22,023 nucleotides of DNA, from UHGV virus genome UHGV-0871375. One strand, 5' to 3'. The notes beneath the pieces were generated by a model. The model saw nothing but the letters and a program-made list of their open reading frames with translations, made no database searches and was not told where the DNA came from. Both the position numbers and the translations under genes were made by a program. The stretch comes from a virus. The first letter of the stretch is position 1, and the number at the start of each line of letters is the position of its first letter. Shown here piece by piece: positions 1 through 22,023 of this stretch.

Positions 1-1
1 A

Positions 2-127
2 TCCATGGAGATGTCATCGTCGTTTTCCTCATGCGTATCTCGCCTTTCTTTTCTCTTCCCTGATGATTCCATATATTTGGAGAAGTCCGGGTTGTTGACC
101 ACGGAACGCATTTGCGACTTTATATAA
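2..127 (+). CDS. possible 3' end of an early-region gene whose start lies outside the window
   Basis: Frame is open from the window edge to TAA at 125-127 while the other two plus frames hit stops earlier; next gene's RBS and ATG follow immediately. No homology recognised. Confidence 0.2.
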   Translation, partial: SMEMSSSFSSCVSRLSFLFPDDSIYLEKSGLLTTERICDFI

Positions 128-143
128 AATGGGGAGACACAAA

Positions 144-386
144 ATGTTCAAACGCTGCATCACCAAGTGTGGAAGCACACCTGACATCCACGCTTTTATT
201 AATGAAGATGGTAAGCTTGTTGTTGAGAGGAGTGGTCATTTTATTAGCAAACAACTTATCATTACCTCTCCAGCGGAGATGGCCGGGGAATGGATAGTTT
301 CTGAACCAGAGGAGTTGCACATCCCGCTTCCTTATGGCCCTCAGGGACTGATTTATAACCGTTATGTTCAGAAGGAGGCGGGTTGA
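144..386 (+). CDS. hypothetical early-region protein (80 aa)
   Basis: ORF 129..386 in the track; ATG at 144 is preferred because GGGGAG at 131-136 sits 7 nt upstream, whereas the ATG at 129 has no RBS. Same strand and operon direction as xis/int. No family recognised. Confidence 0.55.
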   Translation: MFKRCITKCGSTPDIHAFINEDGKLVVERSGHFISKQLIITSPAEMAGEWIVSEPEELHIPLPYGPQGLIYNRYVQKEAG

Positions 387-665
387 CAATGTCAGGCATA
401 ACATCGCCGAGAAATCGAAAGAAAAACAGAACAAGGTAAACGTTGATCTTGCAGCATCAGGCATGGAGTACAGAGAGCGCCTTAACATACCTGTTATCAC
501 TGAGCAGGTATCATGAGAGCAACCTGAGCACTCACGCGAGTATTTCATGGAGCGCATCAGATACTATCGCGAGCAGTCGTTAAACATGCCCAAGGGAAGC
601 AACCCATGGTATATCGATATGGATGAACAGAACGCCAAGAAGTAAACGCAATTTGAACGAATGCG

Positions 666-692
666 AACCCGCCGAGTGCGGGTTTTCTTTTA
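666..692 (+). terminator. intrinsic terminator-like hairpin plus T-run
   Basis: aacccgc-cgagt-gcgggtt stem-loop followed by TTTTCTTTT, read directly from the sequence. Confidence 0.5.
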
Positions 693-734
693 TCTGAACT
701 CGCTACGGCGAGTTTTGTTTTATGGAGACAAGAA

Positions 735-1079
735 ATGTCAGATTTGGCTATGAAGGTTTTGAAATGGCAATCGACTGGCGATGTTGGCATCAGTAGCGCA
801 ACTCTTGCCTCAATCGCATGTGGACTGAAAAAGAATATCTATGGTCATAGCTTCGGTGCTCCACATGACGCAGCCGATTTCAGACGATGCGTTGCACTTG
901 TTGAGCAGATTCCAGAAATCAGAGATTCATTCGACAAGGTTGCAAAGCGCGTTCCGGCATTCAAAGGAATCCTCAACGAATGGGATTTCCTCGTTGCTCT
1001 TTTGAAGTCTGAAATGAAGATACACGGAAACAAAGCACCAGAGACTTACAGAAGAATCAGCGAGCTACGCAAGGACTAA
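735..1079 (+). CDS. hypothetical early-region protein (114 aa)
   Basis: Clean 114-codon ORF with GGAGA RBS about 8 nt upstream of the ATG; terminator-like hairpins on both sides. No family recognised. Confidence 0.65.
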   Translation: MSDLAMKVLKWQSTGDVGISSATLASIACGLKKNIYGHSFGAPHDAADFRRCVALVEQIPEIRDSFDKVAKRVPAFKGILNEWDFLVALLKSEMKIHGNKAPETYRRISELRKD

Positions 1080-1136
1080 CCCGCCTCACACTCGATGAGG
1101 CCTGTTCATTTCTCAAGATATCCAGACCTACCATCG

Positions 1137-1156
1137 CCGCATCAATGCGGTTTTTT
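1137..1156 (+). terminator. short hairpin plus T6 run upstream of xis
   Basis: ccgca-tcaa-tgcgg followed by TTTTTT at 1151-1156. Short stem, so weak. Confidence 0.35.
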
Positions 1157-1157
1157 C

Positions 1158-1200
1158 TTGCGTGTAATTGCGGAGACTTTGCGATGTACTTGACACTTCA
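1158..1200 (+). promoter_or_regulatory. pI-like promoter with CII box (TTGC-N6-TTGC)
   Basis: TTGCGTGTAATTGC at 1158-1171 matches the lambda CII recognition repeat and the surrounding sequence matches lambda pI as I recall it. Its position overlapping the xis start is the lambda arrangement that lets Int be made without Xis. Confidence 0.55.
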
Positions 1201-1402
1201 GGAGTGGAACGCTCGCCAGCGACGCCCAAGAAGCCTTGAAACAGTTCGTCGATGGGTGCGCGAATGCAGGATATTCCCTCCTCCGGTTAAGGATGGAAGA
1301 GAGTATCTGTTCCACGAATCAGCGGTAAAGGTTGACTTAAATCGACCAGTAACAGGTAGCCTTTTGAAGAGGATCAGAAATGGGAAGAAGGCGAAGTCAT
1401 GA
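1184..1402 (+). CDS. xis: excisionase Xis (72 aa), lambda-type
   Basis: Translation MYLTLQEWNARQRRPRSLETVRRWVRECRIFPPPVKDGREYLFHESAVKVDL... is essentially lambda Xis from memory. The true start is the ATG at 1184, not the upstream ATG at 1145 used by the ORF track. The 3' end overlaps int as in lambda. Confidence 0.9.
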   Translation: MYLTLQEWNARQRRPRSLETVRRWVRECRIFPPPVKDGREYLFHESAVKVDLNRPVTGSLLKRIRNGKKAKS

Positions 1403-2453
1403 GCGCCGGGATTTACCCCCTAACCTTTATATAAGAAACAATGGATATTACTGCTACAGGGACCCAAGGACGGGTAAAGAGTTCGGATTAGGCAGAGACA
1501 GGAGGATAGCAATTACTGAAACAATACAGGCCAATATTGAGTTACTCTCAGACAGCGGACGCAAATCACTGATAGACAGAATTAAAGGCGGTGACGCAAT
1601 CACTCTTCATGTGTGGCTTGACCGATATGAAAGAATCCTCACCGAAAGGGGGATCAGGCCGAAAACTCTACTCGACTACGCCAGCAAAATCAGGGCAATC
1701 CGAAGAAAATTGCCGGACAAACCGCTCACTGACATATCAACGAAAGAAGTGGCAGCAATGCTAAACACCTACGTAGCAGAAGGTAAAGCAGCTTCCGCAA
1801 AATTAATCAGGTCAACCCTTGTTGACGTTTTTCGTGAAGCAATAGCCGAGGGGCATGTGGCAACGAATCCGGTAACAGCAACCCGTACAGCAAAGTCAGA
1901 AGTAAGGCGCTCAAGGCTGACAGCTAATGAGTATGTCGAGATTTACCATGCAGCCGAACCTCTCCCTATCTGGCTAAGGCTGGCGATGGATTTGGCCGTC
2001 GTTACAGGGCAGAGAGTCGGCGATTTGTGCAGAATGAAATGGTCAGACATAAACGACAACCATCTTCACATTGAACAGAGTAAAACAGGGGCTAAACTCG
2101 CCATTCCGCTAACGCTAACGATTGACGCGCTCAATATCTCATTGGCTGATACACTACAGAAATGCAGGGAGGCCAGCAGCAGTGAAACTATAATCGCATC
2201 AAAGCATCACGATCCGCTTTCCCCGAAAACAGTATCAAAGTATTTTACAAAGGCGAGAAATGCATCTGGACTCTCATTTGATGGAAACCCGCCAACATTC
2301 CATGAACTGCGTAGCCTGTCAGCGAGGCTATACCGGAACCAGATTGGCGATAAGTTTGCTCAACGTCTTCTCGGGCATAAATCAGATTCAATGGCGGCGC
2401 GGTATAGGGACAGCCGTGGACGGGAATGGGACAAAATTGAAATCGACAAATGA
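1380..2453 (+). CDS. int: tyrosine integrase, lambda Int family (357 aa)
   Basis: The first ~47 aa (arm-binding domain) match lambda Int as recalled. Catalytic residues are present in lambda-like context (VTGQRVGDL, EQSKTG, HELRSL, LLGHKS, ARYRD). Residues ~55-170 (core-binding domain) are clearly diverged from lambda. Confidence 0.95.
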   Translation: MGRRRSHERRDLPPNLYIRNNGYYCYRDPRTGKEFGLGRDRRIAITETIQANIELLSDSGRKSLIDRIKGGDAITLHVWLDRYERILTERGIRPKTLLDYASKIRAIRRKLPDKPLTDISTKEVAAMLNTYVAEGKAASAKLIRSTLVDVFREAIAEGHVATNPVTATRTAKSEVRRSRLTANEYVEIYHAAEPLPIWLRLAMDLAVVTGQRVGDLCRMKWSDINDNHLHIEQSKTGAKLAIPLTLTIDALNISLADTLQKCREASSSETIIASKHHDPLSPKTVSKYFTKARNASGLSFDGNPPTFHELRSLSARLYRNQIGDKFAQRLLGHKSDSMAARYRDSRGREWDKIEIDK

Positions 2454-2680
2454 TTTTATTTTGACTAATAATGACCTGCCCACATTAATTCATTGATAAT
2501 AAAAGAGATTTTAAATATACAACTTATTCACCTAAAGGGTGATAAAATCATACAAATCACCTAAAAATCATATAGTTGCATGCATTAGTGGTTAAATAAC
2601 AGACTACAAAATGCTACAAAACACAACATATCCAGTCACTATGAATCAACCACTTAGATGGTATTAGTGACCTGTAACAG
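2454..2680. other. attP-like attachment region with lambda-type arm sites; core not identified
   Basis: 2600-2680 is close to the reverse complement of the lambda attP P arm, including arm-type sites CAGTCACTAT (2631-2640) and TTAGTGACCT (2664-2673). A P'-arm-like site with one change (ATAATGACCT) lies at ~2472-2481. The lambda core GCTTTTTTATACTAA is absent; a CAACTTATT core-type-like motif sits at 2520-2528. Confidence 0.55.
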
Positions 2681-2684
2681 AGCA

Positions 2685-2726
2685 TTAGCGCAAGGTGATT
2701 TTTTGTCTTCTTGCGCTAATTTTTTG
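2685..2726 (+). terminator. sib/tI-like hairpin terminator downstream of int and attP
   Basis: ttagcgcaag ... cttgcgctaa inverted repeat followed by TTTTTT; matches my memory of the lambda sib/tI retroregulation element and lies in the same relative position. Confidence 0.6.
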
Positions 2727-3020
2727 TCAACACACTGGGTTGGCTTAATTTACAACCATGCTCAGTATCTCGATAAGCGCAGAGAAATGATGCAATGGTG
2801 GGCGGACTGGCTTGATGAAAAGGTGGAGTGATCCACCTTAACTATCGAATGACACAAATCCTTGCAATCCAGTGCAAAGCTTTGTGTACCTTAGTTTTGT
2901 CTCATAGGTAATTCTGCTTTAACTGCGATGCAGGAATCTGTCACCAGACGCACGTCTCGTTGTTTTATGGTTTTCCGTTCATGATTAATATGTTAGCTTG
3001 TCAAAGTTTGTGTTTAAGAT

Positions 3021-3691
3021 ATGGTGATTGATGCAATGTTAAGCGTTCAGATGACTCCACAAGCAAAAGTTAGCTTCGAGGAGCAATGTTTTTTTCATGC
3101 TTCAGGTCTTGTTGTTGCCCCAATAAATGTTGGAGCATTCTCCTACTTTGGCGCTAATTGTATGCTCGGCGGCTTTACGATGGGTAGATTTTGTTCAGTT
3201 GCTCCAGGAGTAAAAATTGGCCTTGGCGAGCATGAAACTGGGTATTTTTCTACGCATCCTTTTTCTTTGGCTCAAAAAATGGTTTTAAAATCCCTGATGG
3301 TATAGGAATGCAACGCGACCTCTCTCAACAGAAGCATGGTATACCAAGAATTGGTCATGACGTATGGATAGGTGCAAATGCGGTTATCAGGCGAGGTATA
3401 ACTATTGGTACTGGCGCTGTTATTGCTGCTGGCGCTATTGTCACCAAAAATGTCGAGCCATATTCAATCGTAGGTGGCGTTTCTGCAAAACACCTAGGGT
3501 ACAGATTTGAGGAATCAATCATCAAAGAGTTACTGGATAGCCAATGGTGGGAATATGATTTAAGCTCATTTATTGGGATTGATACAAGGACACCGACTAC
3601 TTTTTTAGAGCAGTTTAATGCTATAAAAGATAAAAAGAAGGCATCTTATAAGAGATTTACAATTCTTCCATCCGGTGAAATTGTTGAATAG
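3021..3691 (+). pseudogene. hexapeptide-repeat (left-handed beta-helix) acetyltransferase, XAT/CatB-Vat-like, split by a frameshift
   Basis: ORF 3021..3305 carries N-terminal motifs (SFEEQ..., GRFCSVAPG, STHPFSL) and ORF 3308..3691 in another frame carries the hexapeptide core ([13 protein letters not shown]...[12 protein letters not shown]...PYSIVGG) and a C-terminal WW motif (LLDSQWWEY). The two frames join into one ~215-aa protein (...HPFS[L/F][11 protein letters not shown]...) if one nucleotide is added in the T-rich stretch at ~3263-3269. Confidence 0.6.
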
Positions 3692-3712
3692 CGCATCCCT
3701 GCGCTATATTTT
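3690..3712. terminator. shared hairpin between the convergent acetyltransferase and tailspike genes
   Basis: agcgca-tccc-tgcgct perfect 6-bp stem at 3690-3705 lies in the 19-bp gap between the two stop codons, followed by ATATTTTA on the plus strand. Confidence 0.4.
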
Positions 3713-6077
3713 AAATAAACATAAGAATAAACATCAGAAGTTCCTCGTATCTGATACCATACTGATAACCAGCAGGTTTAATAATAACCTGCCTTCCTGT
3801 GTAATATTCCTCGTCGTACCACTCTCCTGTTTCATTGTTTTTAACACTCCTAATTAATACCTCTGGAGCATAAATATCATCCCATTCATCATAACACCAG
3901 AACGCATAGTTATTAGGGTCAAGACCGTATTTTCTGAGAATATTACCTACAGTTTGTGCACCAACACCGAAATGAATCCGAGCGCCATCACTCTTGATCT
4001 TTACTGCATCTTTAAATTTAAACCTCCAGATATTTTTCTTTATTTCAAGCGCAGCAAGACGCTCTGATTCTGTTGTTTTCTCGTCAGCCTCAATACGCAA
4101 TTTCAGCTCTTCATTCGACGTGTTGATACTGCCAGTACCAGCGTATACCTGTGACCATCGAAATGCTGATGTTCCGTTTGAGTTAACATTATCAACAGTT
4201 GGTTTTATAAGGCCAGAAAAATGAGTTTCAGGTGATGTATGAAGAAGATATCCGCCAGAATCGTTTTTTGTGCGTAATTCTATAGAGTCTACAATTATTC
4301 CACTGCGACGAATAATGATAGCGTTATTACCTTGTGCACCATTGTCTTTCTGAGTGGATAGTGTGTATCCGGTACGAGTATCTATCCTCCATCTTTTGGT
4401 ATCTTCTGATGCTTCCTGATTATAAAGATAAATAGAGTTATCAGTGTAATTATTTTTGCCATCAATATTTGTAAGTGTAAATGTGTTATTTACTTTGTCA
4501 TCATTGACCATTAAATTGGCAAGAGTGTAGAGAGGAGATGCAGTATACTGGCTGCAATTAAAACCACGTGCGTTTTGTATGTTAAGTAATGTTGTGACAT
4601 TAGCATTAATGCTAATATTGGAAAAGTTTGTCGCCTGATTTGCTCCATGTATTGATGATGTTACTCCTATCTGAGCTCCAATATCCAATGTACCAAAACT
4701 TACATTAATGAAGTTGTTTGCATCGCCACCATCTATAATTATTCCTTTTTTAGTCGTCGTATAACCTGATGCACTGCTAATCTCCAATCCATTAATGGTG
4801 CACACTCTTGGTCTGATGAGTCTAATTCCTACCCATTCATTTCCGTGGTCATATCCTCCTCCTGCTCTATGTATGGCTAGTCCATTAGCAATCAAAAGAA
4901 ATCTGTTATCAAGATTAATAGGGTGAAGCTGGCTATTAATGATAACGTTTGTCCATATAGACTCACCATACGCATAGCGATTTGATTCGAACACTCTATC
5001 CTGAGCATCATAAACACCGTTTAGGGATCTAGCAACATCGACATTGGTAAGATTGAAATATGTCTTCTGCTTAATTTCAAAAAAATTGGCAACGTTATGC
5101 GTTGTGATATCACTCACACGCATGGATAAAATACCTTCTTCTGGAGCGGTGCGAATGAATCCATCAAGGAACTGTTCATTATAACTTTTGGCTATCTGAT
5201 AACATCCAACAGCATCAATGCGTTCGATTGTGAACTGCCAACTATCACCACAGTTAAAAGACCATTCCCAACCGTACTTCTGTGCGAATTCATCAGAATC
5301 AATATTTGCAGTCTCAGAACAGAAAGATAAAAATCTAAATGTTGGTTTTGGCCTTAGATGATTAAGCCCGACACCTCTTGGGGTATATATGGCATTAGCG
5401 CCATTCCCGCCTTTGCTTTTAATTGTAAGGTGACTTAAACCAAATTCAACATCATGCTTAGTTGGTGCAGCGAAAACAAATCCATCTTTTGGTGATGTGG
5501 TATTATCAAACACAATAACCGTTTTACCCTGTCCATCGCCACACATATTCACTGGTGGTATATTAACTGGTCCAATTAAATTATATGTTCCAGTTGGAAT
5601 ATATAACTTTCCACCATCTCCAAGAGCATTTGCTGCTGCAATAAATGCCACCGTATCATCGTTAACACCGTCACCTTTCGCCCCATAATGCTGTGGCGTA
5701 ATTAACAGCATACGGTCAGAAAAAATCTCTTCCCTAAGTTGATCAGGATCGTATTTTAATACATTTGGAAAATAAAACTGCTGAGTGCCATATGCATCAT
5801 ATACAGCCATAGAATGGCCTTGCACAGTTACGAATTTGGCAATCTGCCCGTTATATACCGGATATCCAGCAGCGTTAATGATGATTGGTTGCGAAACAGG
5901 AACATGAGAGCCGTCTTCGTTCTCTACATAAACCTGAATCTGGTTTTCTGGACTTACCGGGTCAGTGTCAATTTTTCCGATATAAATTTTGCCGTTGGCT
6001 ACTGCTTTAAAAGAACGCGCCATAGTGAAAAGTTGCGAAGGCATACTCACTACAACATTGGCTGTAATGTCTGTCAT
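3711..6077 (-). CDS. tailspike protein (788 aa): P22-type head-binding N-domain, pectate-lyase-like beta-helix domain, C-terminal chaperone-like domain
   Basis: First ~110 aa ([41 protein letters not shown]...VTVQGHSMA) match the P22-family tailspike head-binding domain. [11 protein letters not shown] opens a right-handed beta-helix depolymerase-like region. The C-terminus ([11 protein letters not shown]...IWRFKFKD...[10 protein letters not shown]) resembles intramolecular chaperone (peptidase S74-type) domains. GGAG RBS is 9 nt upstream. Confidence 0.9.
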
Positions 6078-6241
6078 TTAATTTTCTCCAGACGTAGCAA
6101 TGCGGAACAAGATGCAACTTGCCCGGCATTGCATTAATGTAAGTTATGATTTGTTAACTATGAAATGAGTCTATGCAAAAAGATCTGTTGAATATTGCGT
6201 TCTATATATTTGGTTTTTGCACATTTCTGGTGTTTGCAAAG

Positions 6242-8239
6242 CTATTCTGACAACGAATCAGACTTCGCACCCTGCGTCAGGGCGTTAATTGCCTTTTGTG
6301 CCTGCTGCATGGTTTTCTCAAACTCTGTTGATCCGCGTGGGGTGTTTGCCATTCGGAGCATTGCATTTCTGAATGGCTCGCTCTCATAGGCGCGAGTAAG
6401 AAGTCCGTAGCTTACTGCTGCGCCAGTTGTCGCCGGGTTCATTGCCGTCCCATACCCAATAATGAACGGGATAGTTTGCTGCCCTGTGGGTGTTGTTACT
6501 GCCGCTTTTGCAGCCTGCTGCGTGGATTGTAGGTAGTTTTTTAATCCTTTCAGATAAGCAGCGTCCTGCCCCTTAAATGTGATGCCAGTCTGGTTTTGCA
6601 GGATGTTAAGCTGCCGAAGGAACTGGTCAGGGGATCCGCCAGATTTCTCCATCGCCTTTCCAATGATGCCATTGCGCATTTGCGCCCTGCCAACACGACC
6701 AACTGAGTTATACAGCGTCTTAATTTCCGATTTGTTCTTGCTGAATAGCATGTTGTTGACAACTTCCGGCGTCAGGTCTCCTTTCATGAGAACATTCTTC
6801 AGCCTGGTATTCTTTAGTTTCGCCGCTTCGTCAGCGTAGACGGCATTGGCCTGCTGATATTTACGGAGAGTATCGTTGCCAAGATTCTGACCAATGGCAC
6901 CATTGATATCGTCGGTCATCGCCTTGTAAACACGTTGAATGGCGGCATCGGAACGGTTTGGTAAGACTGGTCGCTCCCCCTTCACGTCCATTCTGAACTG
7001 GCTGCGCAGATCGCTTAATTGCTTCAAATCCAGATTAACCGGACCATCAGGGCCAGCATTGCGAACAAGCTCATCACGATATGACTGAAGTTTTGAAATT
7101 GTCTCGTTATCAGCTACCTTACCAAGCTTCTGCAGATTAGATATTTCTGTATCAATCTGCTGAATTGCTCGCGCAGGCTGAATGTTTACTCCAGCCATAG
7201 CATTCTGAACCTGCTCCAGTCGATTACCGGCGGCACGACGAATTCCTAATGTTTTCGCTTTAAGGCTGTCAATAACAACAGATGGATCATACTCACCGAA
7301 TTTATCAGCAAATCTCTGCACCAACTGGCTTCTCGCTTCCTGTTGCGTTGCTCTCATTCCGCTTGTGCCAGCCAGAGGGATATTTTCTGCTGTAGTCTGC
7401 GCCATTTTTCCGACGCGGGAAGTGGGTTGTAACAGGTCTGTGGTGTGCAGAGGAACGCCTTCACGCTCTGCAAATCTGATAGCTTGCTGTGCTTCTGGCG
7501 CAATAGCACCACGAACTCCACGATAAGCAGCACCTAATCCACGTCCGGCAGCGTTAATAGCACCGCCAGCCAGCACACCAACGCCTAAATCGGTGGCGAG
7601 TGCTTCCGCATCATCTTTCGCACTATTTGCAGCAAGTGATCCAACTGCGTTTTCTGCTAGAAGGCGAGTTGCCCCCTGAGCAATTCGACCAGCAAGTGTT
7701 GGTGCCTGTACCGCCGCTCTCTCAACTCCAGCAGGAGTGAGGTAAGGCAATGCTTCAGAAAATACCCTTCCCTCTGTCGTTTGTGGAGTCAGCGCACCTT
7801 GCTGAAGGCCAAAGTCCTGCTCTAATCCCTGCGTTGTTACTCGTGGTGCTGGTTGATATGTACCATCGCCAATACCGAGTTTACCGCCAGCCCAAGCCGC
7901 CGCGCTTGTTACAGCATCGGCAACTGATGCAGGTATGTTTGCCACGTTCACGCCAGCCTGCACCAGTCCACGACCAGTCTCTTTTACTGCTTCACCAAGA
8001 TCAGACATAAATCCACTTTGCTGTGGTTGTTGCTGTGCTACTGGTTGTTGTGTCTCCACTGGCTGCACAGATGGCAATGGATAGGCAGCATAGAAAGCTT
8101 GCTTAGCCTGCTCTGCATTTTCTCCGGCTTGCGGGGCCACGACTTCATTGAAGTATTGCTCCTGAGCCTGCGCTTTTTGTTCTGGTGCTAACGCCTGATA
8201 CTGTGGAGAGGCGATAACATCTTTCCATGCTTTAGCCAT
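6242..8239 (-). CDS. ejection/internal protein, P22 gp16-like (Sf6 gp13 position), 665 aa
   Basis: Gln/Ala-rich low-complexity N-region typical of ejection proteins; position immediately before the tailspike; start overlaps the upstream stop. Confidence 0.8.
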   Translation of the reverse strand: MAKAWKDVIASPQYQALAPEQKAQAQEQYFNEVVAPQAGENAEQAKQAFYAAYPLPSVQPVETQQPVAQQQPQQSGFMSDLGEAVKETGRGLVQAGVNVANIPASVADAVTSAAAWAGGKLGIGDGTYQPAPRVTTQGLEQDFGLQQGALTPQTTEGRVFSEALPYLTPAGVERAAVQAPTLAGRIAQGATRLLAENAVGSLAANSAKDDAEALATDLGVGVLAGGAINAAGRGLGAAYRGVRGAIAPEAQQAIRFAEREGVPLHTTDLLQPTSRVGKMAQTTAENIPLAGTSGMRATQQEARSQLVQRFADKFGEYDPSVVIDSLKAKTLGIRRAAGNRLEQVQNAMAGVNIQPARAIQQIDTEISNLQKLGKVADNETISKLQSYRDELVRNAGPDGPVNLDLKQLSDLRSQFRMDVKGERPVLPNRSDAAIQRVYKAMTDDINGAIGQNLGNDTLRKYQQANAVYADEAAKLKNTRLKNVLMKGDLTPEVVNNMLFSKNKSEIKTLYNSVGRVGRAQMRNGIIGKAMEKSGGSPDQFLRQLNILQNQTGITFKGQDAAYLKGLKNYLQSTQQAAKAAVTTPTGQQTIPFIIGYGTAMNPATTGAAVSYGLLTRAYESEPFRNAMLRMANTPRGSTEFEKTMQQAQKAINALTQGAKSDSLSE

Positions 8240-9540: not shown

Positions 9541-9549
9541 ATTCCCACC

Positions 9550-13049: not shown

Positions 13050-13058
13050 TTATTCACC

Positions 13059-13520: not shown

Positions 13521-13689
13521 CTTCTTCCGCCTTAGCCACTTTTTGCTTCGTTGCGGTTTCTTCAGGAGTTTTTACCCAACCTTTTTTCAGGTGAGATTTA
13601 ACTTCTTCGTCATCAACAATGATGTAATCGACAGCAAACTGACCACAGGTGATCATGTTGCCAGGCTTATAGAGCATTGTTCGTGCCAT
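13501..13689 (-). CDS. small hypothetical protein (62 aa) between coat and gp4-like genes (Sf6 gene 6 position)
   Basis: ATG at 13689 preceded by GGGAGAAG RBS; the ORF track's start at 13728 is further upstream. Acidic C-terminus; 20-nt overlap with the gp4-like gene. Confidence 0.5.
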   Translation of the reverse strand: MARTMLYKPGNMITCGQFAVDYIIVDDEEVKSHLKKGWVKTPEETATKQKVAKAEEDGENEG

Positions 13690-13730
13690 TGTCTTCTCCC
13701 AATAAAAATGGGGCCGAAGCCCCACCAAAA

Positions 13731-14984
13731 TTACTGCCCGGCAATAACGATGCCCGTATATTCAGGAACAAGTACAGAGCAACCGTACAGAGTGGTGAAA
13801 CGAGCAGTGGTTACGCCTTTGATGTGGTCGAAGGCGTAAGACATGATCAGCGTAGCGCCCTGCTCGGTGGTTGCTGTCATTACCTGTGGACCCTGACCAG
13901 TCGGGAACGCCAGTTTGCCGTACATCAGCTCAACAGAACCATCAGCCCAGAACAGGTTAGCCGGTGCAGCATTCTTGTTGAGAATGGTGATTGCTGCGCT
14001 ATTTGCCGCGTTAGCATCAACGTTTGCATATGGTCGGCTGGCGACATCCGCGTTGTCAGGCGGCAGAATTTTCGGGGAGATAGTTACTGTCGTTCCGCTT
14101 ACTGCCAGAACGCGGAATACCTGCGGCTGCCAGGTGGTATCTTTGGTGATCTGGTGTACAGAATTCACCCCTGCAATGGTAAACGCATCACCAACCTGCA
14201 AACCTTCAGCAGATACCGTAATGGTCCCCTGTCGGTTATCAACTGGCATATCGTTAGCATCTTTCGCTTCAACTTTGTGCGCAGGTGCTGCTGCCAGCGT
14301 AATGGAAGTTGCTGTCCCTTTCGGAACACGACCAGAAATATCGGTCTTGTAGCTATCAAAGGAAGCAACCGGAGGGATCTGCGCTTTTTCGTATGCTGTC
14401 AGGGTTGCGCCCTGAGCGTAGGCACGATGACCAAGCTCGCCAGCAAGGTCTTTGTAGTTGAAGGGGTTCCAGAAAGAGCGACGGTTGATACCCTGCGGTA
14501 CACCAATCGCCGTCATGGTGGCATCAATACCTGCCGCACAGTTCCACAAATCACGGCCCTGTGAACCAGTGGTTGAGTCAGACATTGTGATCACGTTAGT
14601 AGCACGCTGCGTAACCATGGAAATCAGGTCAGAGTCAATCTGTGCAGCAAGGCGCATACCTGCGGAGCGACCAGCTTCAGTTTTATGCTCAGGGTCACGC
14701 ATTTCACGCGCATCCAGAGTGTACAGAATGTTTTTCGGCTCCTTGAATACAGAAGGAACAAGGCGCTGAACCAGTGCTGTAGGTGTTTTTCCGCTGAGGT
14801 CGAGGCCTTCCTCAATGTTCATGTGGTAATGCTGCGGACGATACAGAACATCACCTGCTCGCTGCATTGCTGTATCACCGGGACGGAATTTTTTAGCGTT
14901 ACGGGAAACTACGCAGGCGGCCTCAAAGCCTTCAACGTAGTTTTCGAACATGATTTCAAGGTCTTTTGCTAATTGGTTAGCCAT
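13731..14984 (-). CDS. major coat protein, P22/Sf6-type, 417 aa
   Basis: Position after scaffold; C-terminal region (ANVDANAANSAAITILNKNAAPANLFWADGSVEL) matches the P22 coat family as recalled. Confidence 0.9.
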   Translation of the reverse strand: MANQLAKDLEIMFENYVEGFEAACVVSRNAKKFRPGDTAMQRAGDVLYRPQHYHMNIEEGLDLSGKTPTALVQRLVPSVFKEPKNILYTLDAREMRDPEHKTEAGRSAGMRLAAQIDSDLISMVTQRATNVITMSDSTTGSQGRDLWNCAAGIDATMTAIGVPQGINRRSFWNPFNYKDLAGELGHRAYAQGATLTAYEKAQIPPVASFDSYKTDISGRVPKGTATSITLAAAPAHKVEAKDANDMPVDNRQGTITVSAEGLQVGDAFTIAGVNSVHQITKDTTWQPQVFRVLAVSGTTVTISPKILPPDNADVASRPYANVDANAANSAAITILNKNAAPANLFWADGSVELMYGKLAFPTGQGPQVMTATTEQGATLIMSYAFDHIKGVTTARFTTLYGCSVLVPEYTGIVIAGQ

Positions 14985-15002
14985 GCTTAATGCTCCGATA
15001 GG

Positions 15003-15896
15003 TTATTTTTTTGCCTTTTTAGCGGCGAAATACGGCGTCCAGTCACCAGTTTCCAGCGCCTTGGCTTTCAGTTTGTCGAGGTTATTGATTACTGCGCCGT
15101 TGCTCCCCTTAACTGTCGGGGTTGTGGCTGCCGTGGTTTTTGCTTTTGGCATGATTCTGGCCTTCGATTCGATACGTTCCAGCAGACGACCGATTGCTAC
15201 GGGGTTGGTAGCTTCTGCCAGTTGCTTGCGCAGTTCAGCGTTGCGACCGAGCGCCAGAACAACGATTTCCGGCTTCTCTGACTCAAACAGGATCGCGTTT
15301 TGTGTCTCGATGGGGATTTCCTCGAGTACGGCCTGTTCTGCTTCCTGATAGCCAGGAACCTTGAGAGCCTTAACACGTTGCTGATATTTGGATAATCGCT
15401 CTTGATAGGCAGCCTGAAGCTCCTGCTCCTTCTGCTTGCGAGCCATCTCCTGTTGCTGGTACTTGCCGTTATCCTCTGCCCACTTAGCCATGCGTTGCTG
15501 ATAGATTTCTTCATCGAAACCGATGTCCTCATCATCCAGTTTTGGCATTCGCGGTGGTTGAGTGATTACCGGCTGCTGCTCGACGGGTTTCTGAGACTGA
15601 CGCATCAGCTCTTTCAGCTCACGGTCTTTCTCTTTAATCGTCTTGCGCAAGTGTTTTACCAGTCCATGCTCTGCGCCATCTTCGCTGGTTGGCGAATCCA
15701 GCTTTTCGTCACCAAAGTAGAATTCCTGTTCTGATTCGTCGTCATCAGTGTCAGTAGCTTCCTCTGCATCATTTCCTGAGGACTCACTGCCATCTGCTGT
15801 TTCGACTTCTTCAGCCAGTTCGACATCATCAGGAATCTGCTCTGACGCGTCGGTTTCGATTTCAACTTCTGGTGTGTTTTCTGCCATCTGGTCCAT
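15003..15896 (-). CDS. scaffolding protein, 297 aa
   Basis: Strongly acidic N-terminus, charged coiled-coil composition (KEKDRELKELMRQ..., QQQEMARKQKEQELQAAYQERL), position between portal and coat. Confidence 0.85.
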   Translation of the reverse strand: MDQMAENTPEVEIETDASEQIPDDVELAEEVETADGSESSGNDAEEATDTDDDESEQEFYFGDEKLDSPTSEDGAEHGLVKHLRKTIKEKDRELKELMRQSQKPVEQQPVITQPPRMPKLDDEDIGFDEEIYQQRMAKWAEDNGKYQQQEMARKQKEQELQAAYQERLSKYQQRVKALKVPGYQEAEQAVLEEIPIETQNAILFESEKPEIVVLALGRNAELRKQLAEATNPVAIGRLLERIESKARIMPKAKTTAATTPTVKGSNGAVINNLDKLKAKALETGDWTPYFAAKKAKK

Positions 15897-15986
15897 TTGT
15901 TACCCCTGTTTACTCGATGTTCAGCCCATCGGAAGGCAATAGGGTGCCAGGCCTCATAAAGACAGCCATTGCACGTTATGGGTTAA

Positions 15987-18185
15987 TTACTGCTGTGGTT
16001 GTTGCTGAGTTGATTTTTGTAGGATGCTGCTGATGTCCATGCGCTGCGCATGACCCTGTGCCTGACTTTTCAGGACAAGCTCTGCATCAGCACGGGCATT
16101 GTCTCCTTGCTGTTGCTGGAACTGTCCGAGCAGTTTCAGAGCCTCGCGGATATCAGATTTCTGCTGACTATCGGCAGATGCGAGGATTTTCACAACATTT
16201 GCCGCAGCAACCTGAGCATCAGTCTGTGCCTGGAATGCTTTAACCTGAATGGCTTCCTGTTCGTTCTGCGCTTTCTGCAATTCAGCCTGACCAGCAAGAA
16301 GCTGACCTTGCGCTGCAACCATAGCCGGATCTGGCTGACTGGCCTGTTGTTGTTTCGCCTGCTCAACCATCTGCTGCTCTTCTGGCGTTCTCGGCTTGAT
16401 AACTCCAGACAGAAGCAACTGATTGCGGTTGTATTCTTTAAGGTCATCCATCCCTTCGCCGTCCATATTGTCGAGAATCATCGACGATACAAGGTCGTGC
16501 TTCGGCGTTCCTGGTGGGATAAGTGCCAGCATGGAAAGTAACGACTTAACCGTTGCATCACGGCGAGTAGCGAACGACTGACCGACATCGACAGTCACTT
16601 CATAGTTACCCTGCGAAAGGTCGTTAAGCGCGATAACCTGGCCTGTCTGACGGTCAACCACTTCACCAGTCATCAGCGCCACGTCATCGCTGCCGTCCTC
16701 ATTAACGATACGCATCGGCGTATCGCTGCCATAGACTTCACGAGCCATAGAAAGCCACACAACGCCAGCGCGACGCATGGATTTAGCCATGTTGTCCATG
16801 TAGATATAGGACTGCGTATCCATCCGGTTAAAGATGCTATCAACGGTATCGGTAGCAACGTTGCTCGGCATGTTCTCAAGCTGCGACGCGCCTGTAATTT
16901 GCTGAATAGCCGTTCCGGTGTACTGCAATAGCCCGGCAAGAGCAGGAGGCATTTGTGTCGGAGGTGTATAACTGCTGACCTGAGCCTGCGCAGTAATATC
17001 TCCGTTTTTGTTTTTCAGACTTACCATCGGCAGGAACGCCGGGCGCTTTTTGTTGCGCTCCGCCCAATGAGTGGCGAGAGGACCAGGAATCATGTCAACA
17101 TCAACTACAGGAATTCCATCACCGCCAGCCTGAGTAGCGTTATCTGCAATCATGGAAACCATCAGGTTCTCAAGACGCTGTGCATCCATCGCTTTTGCTG
17201 CGTGGCCTTCGATTCGCTCCTGATTATCAACAAATGAGCGACGCCCATATACCGGGATGAGTGGAATATGTTCGCCCGGAATACGCTTCGGTTCTTCCAG
17301 CCATTCAGCGCCAGACAGAAGACCGCAATAAACGCGGCGTTTCTTCACTGTCCGCTCACCGATCAGTTCGAATGAACCATCGGTTAGCTCGTCGACAATA
17401 TCTTTGATTTGATCTTCATCATAGATTGCCGTTTCTCCGCTAACAGGGTTGCGCCATGCTGAGAGCTTCACCTTCTCTATGCGAACTTCGTAGTAGCGTC
17501 CAACATAGATGGCATCAGGCGTTGACCAGTCATATTGAGTGCCAGTGTCATCACGAGAAAGGCTTGCCGCAATGGAATCAGGGTATTCAGCCTCGAACGC
17601 TTTAGGCGTCATGGAGAACATTTCCATAGCCCACATAGCATCAGAGCGGTCATATTGCTTGCTGTCCTGATCGAAGAAAACGCATGTCGCTGGGTCGTAA
17701 ACAGGAAGAAGGCTGATGCGTCGCTGCTCGTTACTCGGATCCATTTCATCTTCGTAATCGGCACACATGCGGAAACAACCGAATCCGCCCGTTACAGCAT
17801 CATCAAATGCGTTATCACACGCTTCACCACCGGATGTTTCCTGATAGTCAGCGCGGAATTTGCCGTTCATCTTTTCGGCTAACGCTTCCGATGCCTTGTC
17901 ATCCTTCGGCCTGAATTTAACGCTGATGCGATTCTGTCGATACTCGCCAATGATGCGATCACATTCACGGGCAATCTTATTCAGTTCAAAACGCGGGTAA
18001 TGCTCAAACCTGCCCTCATCAAACGAGTAACCAGCGTTTGTGCTACCTTCCCACTGTGCGCCGGACACCCTGACGAAACGTTGAGCCTCAATAATCTGCT
18101 CACGCATATCCTGCGTTGCTGACCAGGCATTATCAAAGTTGCACAGCACCTTGCGATGCCAGTCAGTCATCTTTTTTTCTGCCAT
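15987..18185 (-). CDS. portal protein, P22 gp1 / Sf6 gp3 family, 732 aa
   Basis: Length and conserved segments (EHIPLIPVYG..., C-terminal PAMVAAQGQLLAGQAELQKAQNE barrel region) match the P22-family portal. Confidence 0.95.
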   Translation of the reverse strand: MAEKKMTDWHRKVLCNFDNAWSATQDMREQIIEAQRFVRVSGAQWEGSTNAGYSFDEGRFEHYPRFELNKIARECDRIIGEYRQNRISVKFRPKDDKASEALAEKMNGKFRADYQETSGGEACDNAFDDAVTGGFGCFRMCADYEDEMDPSNEQRRISLLPVYDPATCVFFDQDSKQYDRSDAMWAMEMFSMTPKAFEAEYPDSIAASLSRDDTGTQYDWSTPDAIYVGRYYEVRIEKVKLSAWRNPVSGETAIYDEDQIKDIVDELTDGSFELIGERTVKKRRVYCGLLSGAEWLEEPKRIPGEHIPLIPVYGRRSFVDNQERIEGHAAKAMDAQRLENLMVSMIADNATQAGGDGIPVVDVDMIPGPLATHWAERNKKRPAFLPMVSLKNKNGDITAQAQVSSYTPPTQMPPALAGLLQYTGTAIQQITGASQLENMPSNVATDTVDSIFNRMDTQSYIYMDNMAKSMRRAGVVWLSMAREVYGSDTPMRIVNEDGSDDVALMTGEVVDRQTGQVIALNDLSQGNYEVTVDVGQSFATRRDATVKSLLSMLALIPPGTPKHDLVSSMILDNMDGEGMDDLKEYNRNQLLLSGVIKPRTPEEQQMVEQAKQQQASQPDPAMVAAQGQLLAGQAELQKAQNEQEAIQVKAFQAQTDAQVAAANVVKILASADSQQKSDIREALKLLGQFQQQQGDNARADAELVLKSQAQGHAQRMDISSILQKSTQQQPQQ

Positions 18186-18186
18186 A

Positions 18187-19602
18187 TCAACCTACACCAC
18201 AAGGAATTGAGTAACTGGAATAGTCGGGTTGCGCAGCCGACTCCGGGCAATGCATACACATCATCAGCGCATCAGCCAGGTTAGGAGATGGAATACCGAG
18301 CTTCTGCTTCATTTCGACCTTAGTCATTAGCTCCAGCTTCCCGTTTTTATTGAATTTGCGCTGAATCTGCGTCAGTTCTGCAAACAGCTTCTCCAGCATA
18401 TTCTCGCCTATCGCTTCTTTATCGAAACTCAGCATGTCGTCGGGAGCTGCATACTCACCGTGGACAACCGCCCGATATGTCAGATACAGCCTGTCAGCCA
18501 GCGCGTAATAGAATTGCGCTCGCTTATTGCGGAATACATCGCCAATAGTGCGAACGTTGTCTCCCTGCACGACTTCATCAGCCCATGCTCCGGCCTGATA
18601 AGGCGCATCTTCATCGAATGGCGATTCGCTGCCCTTGAACATCGTGGCGGTAATTTTCTTGCCGGAGAATGCTTCCGTTGTCTGTCTGCGTAGCCCTGCA
18701 CCGACACCATCGCCATCCCACAGGTAATGGTCAGCGCCGTCTTCAATCGCCAGCGAAGTAGCCCAGTCAGCACCCTCGTTGATGTCCATCAGCAGACCTT
18801 CGGCAATGCGCTTAACTACCGAACCGTGGCGCGATGCATAACCTTTAGCATCCGGTCCTGTATCTGACGGGTCATGCGCAGAGACAACAGCGCCTTTCGC
18901 CTTCCATCCGAGTTTCTTGTGCGCATCGGTTGCGGCTTCAAGCCATTCACATTTGATAATTGCCATATCACTTGCGCTCACTGGCTCACCAAGCCAGATG
19001 TGACGATACAGTGTCGGATTTCTGCGTTTGCACTCTTCCATCTCCAGACGGAGAACTTCAGGAAAGTGCGGGTTGTCGGTGTAGTTCACCGTCAGTAGGC
19101 AAATATCATCGGGAGGATTTACGACGAATCGCTGATAGGTATCGTCGAGGATGTTCTTCGGGTTAAAGCTCACCCATATTTCGGAAAACGGCTTGCGGAT
19201 GGTTGGTATCAGGATATCCCATGATTCCTTCGTTACCGCTTCCGCTTCTTCCACCCAGCAGATATCAATGCCTTCGAGCGATTTAATCTTCGTCGGGTTG
19301 TTTTTGATGCCGTAGAACATGAATTCAGCATTCGTTCCGAGATGACGAATCATGGAACGCTGAATTTCAAACTCAGCCGAATACCCTTCCCGCTCGATGG
19401 TGTCTTCAAGCAACCGGATTACCGAATCACTGATACTGTTTTGCAGCTCGCGAGCGCAGAGAATACGCACCGGCTGCCGACGCGCCGCTTCAACAAGCAG
19501 CCTGGCAATTGCCCATGACTTACCGCTACCTCGACCGCCTTTGGCGACTTTGTAGCGATGCGCCTCAATGAACGGTTCAAAGATAGGATTAATCGAGGTC
19601 AT
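18187..19602 (-). CDS. terminase large subunit, 471 aa
   Basis: Walker A (KVAKGGRGSGKSWAIARLL) near the N-terminus; Sf6 gp2-like length; ATGA overlap with the small-subunit gene. Confidence 0.95.
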   Translation of the reverse strand: MTSINPIFEPFIEAHRYKVAKGGRGSGKSWAIARLLVEAARRQPVRILCARELQNSISDSVIRLLEDTIEREGYSAEFEIQRSMIRHLGTNAEFMFYGIKNNPTKIKSLEGIDICWVEEAEAVTKESWDILIPTIRKPFSEIWVSFNPKNILDDTYQRFVVNPPDDICLLTVNYTDNPHFPEVLRLEMEECKRRNPTLYRHIWLGEPVSASDMAIIKCEWLEAATDAHKKLGWKAKGAVVSAHDPSDTGPDAKGYASRHGSVVKRIAEGLLMDINEGADWATSLAIEDGADHYLWDGDGVGAGLRRQTTEAFSGKKITATMFKGSESPFDEDAPYQAGAWADEVVQGDNVRTIGDVFRNKRAQFYYALADRLYLTYRAVVHGEYAAPDDMLSFDKEAIGENMLEKLFAELTQIQRKFNKNGKLELMTKVEMKQKLGIPSPNLADALMMCMHCPESAAQPDYSSYSIPCGVG

Positions 19603-20024
19603 TTTCCGAACAGAGTGCTCATCGGTGATGTTTCAATCTGAATTGCGCCGCCGTCCTTACCGACAAGCTCGTTAGTTACCTTGTCGCCATACTTACGGGG
19701 ATTCATTCTGGCCAGCGCCCATTTGCGGGTATCAACGCGAAGTCTTGCCTTTGCCACCTCAGCAGCATCTGGAATCGCATTGTCAGCAATTTCGAATATC
19801 TCTTCGAAAATAGAATCAGCTCGCGCCTCAGTTGCCTTCGCGTACTTGTCTCTAAATTCGTCATGCTCTGACAGCCAGCGAAATACAGTAGCCTTTGCTG
19901 GCATGCCGGGGCGCTTGCAAACCTTAACCAGACTTTCCCCGGAGGCAAGCAGCGCACAGATATCATCAGCCACCTCCGGCAGGTAATCCGAAGGGCGACC
20001 GACATTCTTTTTCTCAGTCGCCAT
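19599..20024 (-). CDS. terminase small subunit, Sf6 gp1-like, 141 aa
   Basis: Size and position directly upstream of TerL; sequence recalled as similar to the Sf6 small terminase (MAT...GRPSDY...CKRPGMP...). Confidence 0.85.
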   Translation of the reverse strand: MATEKKNVGRPSDYLPEVADDICALLASGESLVKVCKRPGMPAKATVFRWLSEHDEFRDKYAKATEARADSIFEEIFEIADNAIPDAAEVAKARLRVDTRKWALARMNPRKYGDKVTNELVGKDGGAIQIETSPMSTLFGK

Positions 20025-20103
20025 ATTGATTATTTCCCTTCTGCTTGCTTATCCCATTCATCGCGGAATTTGGATGGGTTGTCGAAACCTTGAGTTGCCA
20101 TGT

Positions 20104-20346
20104 TTATGCTCCGGTAGTGAACAGGTCTAACGCTTCCTTCGATTTACGCACCGCTTCAAATGTGCGGATCGTGATATCTGAATTAGCTCCGCCTGACTGG
20201 AAGTGAATTTTGAATAACTCAAGCTTCAGCTCGTCAGTGCCAATGAACTGAAATGCTTCTTCTGCGGCTGCGTTCTGGTTCATGACCAGTTTGTAAATCT
20301 CTAACTGGAATTTCTGTTCTTCAGTCATGGGAATAATCTCTGCCAT
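20104..20346 (-). CDS. hypothetical 80-aa protein upstream of terminase (P22 orf80 position)
   Basis: Clean ORF in late-operon orientation between a terminator and the TerS gene. Confidence 0.55.
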   Translation of the reverse strand: MAEIIPMTEEQKFQLEIYKLVMNQNAAAEEAFQFIGTDELKLELFKIHFQSGGANSDITIRTFEAVRKSKEALDLFTTGA

Positions 20347-20451
20347 TGTTGGCTCCGTTTATCCGTTAAAAGGGATATCAGTTAAGTTATCCCGTGTAGG
20401 GTATAAGCCATTATCAAAGCCACTCTGTAGGGAATGGCTTTTGTGATGGCA

Positions 20452-20475
20452 ATAAAAAAGGCCGCCTGAGCGACC
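20452..20475 (-). terminator. intrinsic terminator on the minus strand
   Basis: Minus-strand RNA folds GGUCGC-ucag-GCGGCC (one G-U pair) followed by UUUUUUAUU; 10 nt downstream of the stop of the 20486..20656 ORF. Confidence 0.45.
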
Positions 20476-20485
20476 TGTTAGTTGT

Positions 20486-20656
20486 TCACAACTTCCATTG
20501 AAGGTCCAGCATGTCGAAAAATGATCCGCATTTAGGGGGATTTTCCATTCTTGCCCTCTCTTCAGCCGCTTTGTAATAAGCCATTGGCCTTTTCACACCA
20601 TCAGCACCAGTGATGTATTCAACGCCTTCCTTCGGATCTTTGTTTACTGAAACCAT
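20486..20656 (-). CDS. small hypothetical protein (56 aa)
   Basis: ATG at 20656 with GGAAGAGG RBS; the ORF track's start at 20671 is a GTG codon. Followed by a terminator. Confidence 0.45.
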   Translation of the reverse strand: MVSVNKDPKEGVEYITGADGVKRPMAYYKAAEERARMENPPKCGSFFDMLDLQWKL

Positions 20657-20837
20657 CGCAACCTCTTCCACTTGTTCATCATCGATTCAGCGGATGTCTT
20701 TCCATCAGTCCGCCACCACAAAGAATCTTTTTTGCCATAAGGCTGGAGGTTCATCTTTCAGTGGCTGCCAGTGTTATTTCCCCACTTACTGGCTTGGGTT
20801 GCTTCGTGGTACTGCTGTTAATTAGTGAGTCCGGGGA

Positions 20838-21323
20838 TTATTTCAGTTCGTTACCAGGCATTTCTTTTAGCTCTTTCAAATGACAACGATTGAGACTAAA
20901 CCACTCCCCGTGCGACCTATAGTTGTAATATTTTTGGTGCAATTTGGTTTCAAGCTCTCTATCGGCCGGAATCTTTGCAATTAGATTTAGCTTCCCACCA
21001 CTCATGCGAGATATCTCTGAAATTCGTTTATTACCCCTGCGACTAAACCCTATTTTTGTTAGCCCACTATCTTCAGCATGCAGAACGTACACATATGATT
21101 TTTGCGAAGCACTGGGTGCGACTTTGTTGTAATTAATCATGTCAAACATGAAGCCTTGCTTTAGCAAAGTTTCAAAAAAGATAGAATTAACACACCCATT
21201 CCTTCTCAGATCTGCACTTAGCTTGTCAATTTCCTCTATGATGTCGCCAGACCCCTTTCCACTTATAAGAAAATCTTGGTACATGCGACCAATTCTTGAG
21301 GTAATTTCAACAAAGTTATTCAT
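20838..21323 (-). CDS. T5orf172-domain (GIY-YIG superfamily-like) protein with unknown N-terminal domain, 161 aa
   Basis: C-terminal half SYVYVLHAEDSGLTKIGFSRRGNKRISEI...KLHQKYYNYRSHGEWFSL fits the T5orf172 pattern (YVYVL...KIG...R...E..LH..F...GEWF). Gene is visibly AT-richer than its neighbours. Confidence 0.8.
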   Translation of the reverse strand: MNNFVEITSRIGRMYQDFLISGKGSGDIIEEIDKLSADLRRNGCVNSIFFETLLKQGFMFDMINYNKVAPSASQKSYVYVLHAEDSGLTKIGFSRRGNKRISEISRMSGGKLNLIAKIPADRELETKLHQKYYNYRSHGEWFSLNRCHLKELKEMPGNELK

Positions 21324-21468
21324 AGCGTTTACCTTTTAGAAAGATGAGCCTGTTCGCACAGAAAAGCCGTCCCCGAGATGGTCGCCACCATATACGGCAA
21401 TTCTCAGGCTCAGCTTTCTGAAAGACTCGGGGTTTATATGCGCTGCGATGCGCGTTTACTGCGGACAC

Positions 21469-21493
21469 AAAAAAGCCCCGCGAATGCGAGGCT
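21469..21493 (-). terminator. intrinsic terminator on the minus strand, downstream of Rz
   Basis: Minus-strand RNA folds AGCCUCGC-auuc-GCGGGGCU (8 bp, one G-U pair) followed by UUUUUUGUGU. The plus strand has a C-A mismatch and no T-run. Confidence 0.55.
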
Positions 21494-21666
21494 AAATCCT
21501 GGTGTTTGTGATGACTGGCTCTTATCTCAACGCAGCCCCTTACTGCGCGCCAGATGCTCAATATCAAGCATCAGCAATGAGATGTTTAATCTGGATTCAC
21601 TCCAGAAGTGAGCACCACCCTGTCTACAGAGCCAGATGTGAAGGATGATGAGTAAAATTATCGCTA

Positions 21667-22023
21667 TCATCGAAGGCATTGCGTCCTGATGTATTCCTGC
21701 AGGTAGTTAACCTGCGCGGTTATCCTGTCTATTCCACTTCGGAGACGGTAATAATTGAGTTCAGCATCTGCTGTAAGTCTTGGGCTTTCTCCATCGCCCA
21801 TGCTGCTGGCTCCGGTCGTTGACTTTGCACAGGTGGCGGCGACTTGCAGGCGCTTACGACCAGCAGAAACATCAGCACGGAGACTTTCGATAGTCGCGTT
21901 AGCATCAGCAAGCTCCTTTGTGTATCTGGCGTCGAGTTCTGCTACATCACGTTGACGCTTCTGCATGTCAGCGATGATGGATGCGGCTTTGTCGCGCTGC
22001 TCTTTGTAGGCGATGGCGTTATC
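21667..22023 (-). CDS. Rz: Rz i-spanin, 5' end beyond the window
   Basis: MQKRQRDVAELDARYTKELADA...EYIRTQC matches lambda Rz from about residue 54 onward; the frame stays open to the window edge, so the true start is outside. Confidence 0.85.
   Translation of the reverse strand, partial: DNAIAYKEQRDKAASIIADMQKRQRDVAELDARYTKELADANATIESLRADVSAGRKRLQVAATCAKSTTGASSMGDGESPRLTADAELNYYRLRSGIDRITAQVNYLQEYIRTQCLR
21729..21911 (-). CDS. Rz1: Rz1 o-spanin lipoprotein, embedded in Rz in the +1 frame
   Basis: 60-aa ORF entirely inside Rz; signal peptide with lipobox (LLVVSAC) followed by a proline-rich mature part, the classic embedded Rz1 arrangement. Confidence 0.8.
   Translation of the reverse strand: MLMLTRLSKVSVLMFLLVVSACKSPPPVQSQRPEPAAWAMEKAQDLQQMLNSIITVSEVE

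Follow-up and report, generated by a model that had tools for sequence, protein, structure and literature searches.

An Sf6-like virion module joined to an HK022-type integration cassette with unsplit attP in the phage genome UHGV-0871375

Gene content of the window

The stretch of DNA analysed here, referred to as the window, comprises 22,023 nt of the virus genome UHGV-0871375, and both of its ends lie inside phage DNA. At the left end the plus strand carries early-left accessory open reading frames (ORFs; 1-1080) and the genes xis and int, followed by a non-coding segment (2454-3020) that includes the phage attachment site attP, and by an O-acetyltransferase gene. The minus strand from 3711 to 21966 is taken up by a complete late operon of the Sf6/P22-like kind that reads leftward, as judged from the ORF list and Pfam matches (Table 1). 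GC content is about 50% in the late operon but lower, 37-41%, across 2000-6000, in keeping with a mosaic. The window very probably represents some 22 kb out of the approximately 40 kb of a temperate P22-like (Lederbergvirus) phage of Escherichia coli in the attP permutation, with an Sf6-like virion module and an HK022 integration cassette (pI-xis-int-attP-sib). An earlier note on this DNA had described it as a mosaic of an integration module and an Sf6/P22-like podovirus packaging, head and tail module, and Pfam matches and alignments located all of the elements it listed where it had placed them.

Table 1. Positions of genes and sites in the window and the evidence for each assignment.
Feature	Position	Strand	Evidence or remark
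DNA polymerase III theta / phage P1 Hot homologue, early-left accessory gene	364-651	+	in-frame TGA at 514-516, read from sequence
114-aa ORF upstream of xis	735-1079	+	ORF list; within HK022-shared segment (homology from ~707-718)
pI region	1158-1183	+	TTGC-N6-TTGC repeat at 1158-1171; directly before and overlapping xis start
xis, excisionase, 72 aa	1184-1402	+	Pfam Exc, E = 3.9e-41; 71/72 residues as in lambda Xis
int, tyrosine recombinase, 357 aa, HK022 type	1380-2453	+	Pfam Arm-DNA-bind_1 (1.1e-27) and Phage_integrase (1.8e-41)
attP	2448-2674		colinear with annotated HK022 attP
P' arm	about 2454-2519		arm-type site 2468-2477 (arm-site scan)
att core/identity segment	2520-2537		caacttattcacctaaag; HK022-type
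P arm	2538 to about 2674		arm-type sites 2633-2642 (CAGTCACTAT) and 2664-2673 (arm-site scan)
sib / tI hairpin, putative retroregulation site, distal to attP	2678-2727	+	matches HK022 'sib transcription processing site'; near-identical in lambda and HK022
Scar: last 85 nt, including stop codon, of IntS/Sf6-type integrase gene	2747-2831	+	prophage matches begin there
CatB-related hexapeptide-repeat O-acetyltransferase gene	3036-3691	+	Pfam Hexapep on distal ORF; alignment to intact WP_000953884 genes
Tailspike, 788 aa (P22 head-binding domain and pectate-lyase-like beta-helix)	3711-6077	-	Pfam Head_binding, E = 8.7e-67
Gene 16-tailspike intergenic spacer, 164 bp, no immI genes	6078-6241		ORF coordinates
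gp16, ejection protein, 665 aa	6242-8239	-	PF26808 Phage_P22_gp16 listed on same-length, same-position ORF of related prophages
gp20, ejection protein	8239-9540	-	
gp7, ejection protein	9550-10224	-	
gp14-like	10199-10681	-	Pfam DUF2824
Tail needle gp26 with Sf6-type knob	10678-11631	-	Pfam PF16532 Phage_tail_NK (3.2e-109)
gp10	11631-13049	-	Pfam Phage_stabilise
gp4	13059-13520	-	Pfam P22_Tail-4
Coat	13731-14984	-	Pfam P22_CoatProtein
Scaffold	15003-15896	-	position and annotation in relatives
Portal	15987-18185	-	Pfam P22_portal
Terminase large subunit	18187-19602	-	Pfam Terminase_3
Small terminase, Sf6-type	19599-20024	-	PF20901 Sf6_terminase (1.3e-44)
DUF2560	20104-20346	-	Pfam
T5orf172/MUG113-domain ORF (GIY-YIG-like), 161 aa	20838-21323	-	Pfam
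Rz spanin	21667-21966	-	Pfam

The integration cassette compared with HK022 and lambda

The cassette aligned to HK022 in one piece, at 94.9% identity over 707-2730 (95.0% over 718-2730 in a second alignment), and the matching stretch of the HK022 record has annotations for xis, int, attP and the 'sib transcription processing site'. The genes xis and int overlap, with pI inside or ahead of xis. The Int protein is 96% identical to HK022 Int and 75% identical to lambda Int. Judged by sequence, the integration module (1158-2730) appears to be of the HK022 type in specificity. The label 'lambda-type' given to int/xis/pI/sib previously is right at the family level, as Xis differs from lambda Xis at a single residue and pI is identical; it does not hold for specificity, where Int and the att core point to HK022. 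Lambda specificity, that is, insertion at attB-lambda between gal and bio, was rejected: the lambda core GCTTTTTTATACTAA, which is present in lambda and at the ends of the sister prophages 720R6 and AH21A060, is absent from both strands of the window, and Int is closer to that of HK022.

The pI region is identical to lambda and HK022 over TTGCGTGTAATTGCGGAGACTTTGCGATG; across the aligned stretch the window agrees with lambda base for base, and HK022 differs at two positions. We take the TTGC-N6-TTGC repeat to be the lambda cII-binding motif, its putative function being that established for lambda. In a three-way alignment of the window, HK022 and lambda, the P' arm, the arm-type sites of the P arm and the sib hairpin are conserved in all three, and the att core follows HK022 (CAACTTATTCACCTAAAGG). 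The sib region folds into a long predicted hairpin (-36.1 kcal/mol, z = -4.56), and by analogy with lambda and HK022 it would be a retroregulator. ARAGORN detected no tRNA in the window, and there is no tRNA-type att site.

The P' arm of the window is about 90% identical to that of HK022, and its plus strand holds two promoter-like sites pointing from int toward the core, TCGACA-18-AATAAT (2443-2472) and ATGACC-18-GATAAT (2471-2500). HK022 has been reported to drive torS from a promoter inside the int end of the prophage (PMC6814406).

Integrated counterparts between torS and torT

E. coli chromosomes matched the window either up to 2537 or from 2520, and none matched across. The int side of these prophages adjoins torS, which starts about 95 bp past int, and the tail side adjoins torT. 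The int-side junction reads AACTTATTCACCTAAAG/TGCACC towards torS and the tail-side junction CAACCTTTTTCACCTAAAG/GATGAC towards torT, and in the junction alignment the window holds phage sequence at both sides of the core. The prophage next to torT in GCA_020474465.1 matches 2520-16077 with three differences. Two of them, at 2522 and 2526, are in the att core where attP and attB differ, as expected of an attB-derived half-site; the sole difference outside the core is a 1-bp indel in a T run. Next to torS in GCA_048107305.1, the match covers 124-2537 with one mismatch. The exact Int protein adjoins torS in 10 of 10 long contigs, among the matches listed.

Since near-identical integrated prophages are split at 2520/2537, the window is the same phage in the attP (circular or virion) permutation. 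Read from these relatives, the integration target is probably the HK022 attB between torS and torT, with crossover within 2520-2537; HK022 specificity would mean insertion at AACCTTTTTCACCTAAAGTGC between the two genes. The proposal that attP lies intact between int and the tail genes was borne out, the window being continuous where the integrated relatives break, and no host DNA abuts int in the window. The intact attP tells users of the record that it is in phage order, not prophage order, and its correct label would be a Lederbergvirus-type temperate coliphage with an HK022-type integrase targeting torS/torT, rather than a lambda-att phage.

The published attB of HK022 is in the torS-torT interval, a site occupied in about 5% of E. 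coli genomes by a prophage with an HK022-like int (PMC6814406). Gally, a P22-like phage of E. coli LF82, is integrated there, and P22-like prophages at torS-torT are spontaneously induced at a high level (PMC9928086). Prophages at the site are reported to alter torS expression and trimethylamine N-oxide (TMAO) respiration (PMC6814406), so that lysogens of the window phage may show the same phenotype.

A deletion derivative of the window phage was also seen between torS and torT (GCA_038411665.1, ABRUVO010000001.1). It retains int and xis with a few of the early ORFs, fused to an HNH gene, the needle, gp14, gp7, gp20 and gp16 genes, an identical tailspike and the acetyltransferase. It is without head, terminase, lysis, replication and immunity genes, which marks it as a defective remnant.

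Segment 2454-3020 and the integrase scar

The segment 2454-3020 is phage DNA throughout; the earlier note had held that its being bacterial chromosome would count against a non-integrated genome. From 2454 to 2730 it consists of HK022-type attP and sib (90-95% identity), and the similarity to HK022 stops at 2730. Matches to CUS-3-type and IntS-type prophages start 17 bp further on, at 2747/2748. In one of these prophage loci (L027) a 385-aa integrase gene ends at the equivalent of 2831, and 2747-2831 is therefore the tail of a displaced integrase gene. The annotation of strain S87 treats this scar as a fragment truncated at the N terminus, and the start of the scar at this distance from the end of HK022 homology is common to Gally, the S87 prophage and the attB-lambda prophage vB_EcoP-720R6. 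An older IntS/Sf6-type integrase has thus given way to an HK022-type cassette, and 85 nt of its gene remain as a scar. The remainder, 2853-3020, is the upstream region and leader of the O-acetyltransferase gene, contiguous with that gene in many P22-like prophages.

The O-acetyltransferase gene is frameshifted at a run of five T residues (T5; 3259-3263) where intact relatives have six (T6), and is split into ORFs of 94 and 127 aa. One further assembly, SRR11347971, has the 127-aa ORF with the same truncation, in a phage integrated at torT. The T5/T6 difference may reflect genuine polymorphism, a sequencing error in the homopolymer or a switch; the second occurrence makes it less likely that this record merely contains a sequencing error.

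Physical state of the source molecule

The unsplit attP is as expected of a free genome, and, read most simply, the source was a virion-derived or circular genome, the gene order itself showing only that attP is unsplit. The earlier description of a virion or circular replicative arrangement is accordingly sound for the non-integrated order and goes further than that order for the type of molecule: these 22 kb would be no different in a tandem lysogen, so that virion, circle and tandem lysogen look alike in the window.

Some observations count against, or fail to strengthen, the main reading of the window. Exact 51-55-mers across attP, the sib/scar junction and the frameshift had no match in viral_contigs, and neither the attP 51-mer nor a gapped attP-to-scar pattern had a match in genome_contigs. 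Exact-protein look-ups returned integrated or IntS-type contexts only, among the matches listed. A consensus scan of 1000-6400 for sigma-70 promoters and terminators gave 13 promoter-like sites against 14.9 ± 3.8 in shuffled sequences, no excess; the scan being no better than shuffles, pI is assigned from its identity to lambda. Two accessory genes are broken, which could hint at decay: the O-acetyltransferase gene is frameshifted, and the theta-like gene contains an internal stop. The phage life cycle can do without either gene, and integrated relatives have the same theta stop.

The window could alternatively come from two or more prophage copies in tandem at torS/torT, where the copy-copy junction regenerates an intact attP. 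A window without host flanks would look the same for such a junction as for a circle; '(HK022)n' lysogens appear in a published strain list, suggesting that multi-copy lysogens are routinely handled (PMC6814406); and the contigs with exact Int or tailspike proteins were all chromosomal among the matches listed, of which the longest contigs were read, a choice that favours chromosomes. Against this, none of the 5,426 complete E. coli genomes has a place covering at least 80% of the window, no tandem junction was seen in them, and the unsplit order is also that of conventional phage records (Gally, Sf6). We consider a tandem origin improbable.

A misjoin during assembly, in which the ends of an integrated prophage were fused through the short shared core to mimic attP, is still harder to sustain and is very improbable. 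Draft assemblies do break at prophage ends, the GCA_020474465.1 contig itself ending within the prophage, and the sequence that attL and attR have in common with attP is only about 11-18 bp long. A repeat of 11-18 bp is, however, below usual assembler word sizes, and the joined sequence equals HK022 attP base for base through core and arms, including the attB-differing positions 2522 and 2526. Given the high spontaneous induction of P22-like prophages at this site (PMC9928086), real attP molecules would be expected in cultures. The reading of 2454-3020 as host DNA, with the window as the end of an integrated prophage, has next to no probability and was rejected on the HK022 attP/sib homology, the phage integrase 3' end, the leader contiguous with the O-acetyltransferase gene in many prophages, and the true torS and torT junctions, which diverge in sequence right after the core.

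The late operon and the absence of immI

The virion gene order is that of Sf6 and 720R6, with 94-96% nucleotide identity to Lederbergvirus records, and the virion module is P22-like (Lederbergvirus) of the Sf6 subgroup. In a megablast search of phage records the late region matched only Lederbergvirus (vB_EcoP-720R6, Kapi1, CUS-3, Sf101, Sf6, HK620 and Gally) at 93-96%, and no phage record covered 80% of the window. The ejection genes (6242-10224) carry the Pfam families Inj_translocase and P22_gp7, with 95% nucleotide identity to Sf6 genes 12-13. The 665-aa gp16 and the scaffold had no Pfam match in the window scans. The exact tailspike protein is found in many E. coli prophages. The slot between Rz and DUF2560/terminase is variable, relatives carrying Rha or KilA-N genes there.

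The P22 immI region had been described as absent, with only 164 bp in its place, and the distance from the tailspike start (6077) to the end of gene 16 (6242) is exactly that. The spacer has no listed ORF of at least 50 aa, and ant, arc, mnt, sieA and sar are not present; Rfam at the gathering threshold gave no match in the window, and no sar-like RNA. Sf6 likewise has 164 bp between its genes 13 and 14 (13555-13718), which align to the window spacer without gaps, and the AH21A060 prophage differs from the window spacer at one position in 201 aligned. P22 has 2,890 bp at the equivalent place, with sieA, orf59a, mnt, arc, sar and ant; CUS-3, Gally, 720R6 and NRZ14408 phage have partial or full immI-like sets. 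The immI-less state is shared by many prophages (9836 to 10001 in the loci examined). The absence of immI is therefore real, and on these alignments it is the known Sf6-lineage arrangement rather than a new deletion.

Comparison with named phages

P22-like phages with an HK022-type integrase at torS/torT have already been described (Gally), and nothing here is unusual for the group (Gally, PMC9928086). Gally (OV696608, Lederbergvirus) has the same xis-int-attP-sib cassette and the same IntS-scar junction, aligning to window 714-2938 in one piece at 93.8%, and its record is also written with attP unsplit. It differs in having another tailspike, no O-acetyltransferase, and mnt plus two ORFs (a partial immI-like set) between gene 16 and the tailspike; overall it covers just 42% of the window.

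Sf6 (AF547987) shares the Sf6-type small terminase, the needle knob, the ejection genes (95% in nucleotide sequence, 5740-9195) and the spacer without immI. It has instead an IntS/P4-like integrase with attP upstream of int, a membrane-type Oac and another receptor-binding part of the tailspike. With attP upstream of int, as in Sf6 and CUS-3, integration keeps int adjacent to oac and the tailspike; the window cassette has attP downstream of int, as P22 does. P22 shares the order tailspike, O-antigen modification gene(s), attP, int, xis and all virion protein families. It differs by its 2.9-kb immI/sieA region between gene 16 and gene 9, by its integrase, and by gtrABC in place of the acetyltransferase, and at the nucleotide level it resembles the window only weakly, in patches of about 70%.

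HK022 (X51962 / AF069308) shares xis, int, attP core and arms and sib, colinear at about 95% nucleotide identity, and the same torS-torT target (PMC6814406), but is a lambdoid siphovirus with HK97-like head genes, and its similarity to the window ends at 707 and 2730. Lambda shares the module architecture, near-identical arm-type sites and sib, and the likenesses in pI, Xis and Int given above; it differs in its core. The sister P22-like prophages vB_EcoP-720R6 and AH21A060, whose late region is the same as that of the window or related to it and which are located at attB-lambda, share the window from 2593 onward only.

Proposed integration pathway and origin of the cassette

By analogy with lambda and HK022, DNA packaged by the headful mechanism (Sf6-type terminase) would circularise after injection. 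Activation of the cII type at pI, inside the start of xis, would yield Int without Xis. Int, acting on the arm sites and the core (2520-2537), would then recombine attP with the HK022 attB in the torS-torT intergenic region, placing xis-int beside torS and the P arm, sib, O-acetyltransferase gene and tailspike gene beside torT. While attP is unsplit, sib lies downstream of int, and read-through transcripts would be processed or destabilised, keeping Int low; integration would part sib from int, and induction could then express Int and Xis for excision. In a phage lacking immI there would be no antirepressor circuit.

The sib/IntS-scar junction (2730/2747) is common to the torS/torT phages (window, Gally, S87) and to at least one attB-lambda phage (vB_EcoP-720R6), and phages with an identical tailspike still carry a full IntS-type integrase. 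The region from 2593 onward is the P-arm part common to lambda and HK022; since the attB-lambda sisters share the window from this point, specificity may be swapped within conserved arm and sib sequences. A lambda-family cassette might have been captured once and then retargeted, from an argW-type site to attB-lambda to torS/torT, through exchange in the arm-site/sib sequences; separately, the O-acetyltransferase T5/T6 tract, which two independent assemblies show in the broken form, could turn surface acetylation on and off. We put these proposals forward as speculative and rather unlikely. If true, the arm-site/sib stretch would be a recombination hot-spot through which a single virion type could move from one chromosomal site to another. 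The exchange of modules, marked by the 85-nt scar, neatly illustrates lambdoid mosaicism in textbook form and involves no new principle, and its significance beyond correct annotation is slight.

The early-left region

The theta-like gene, whose homologues are annotated as theta/Hot in Klebsiella phages and P1, reads VITEQVS*EQPEH around its internal stop. In RefSeq, the theta stretch of E. coli NZ_CP182374 is likewise annotated 'DNA polymerase III subunit theta, internal stop', so the stop is lineage-wide and not an error of this record. The 114-aa ORF belongs to no Pfam family; 'ORF114' is an annotated name in the phage 434 record M60848. Bases 1-123 have no similarity to the otherwise 99.96%-identical prophage in GCA_048107305.1, which places a further mosaic boundary at about 124.

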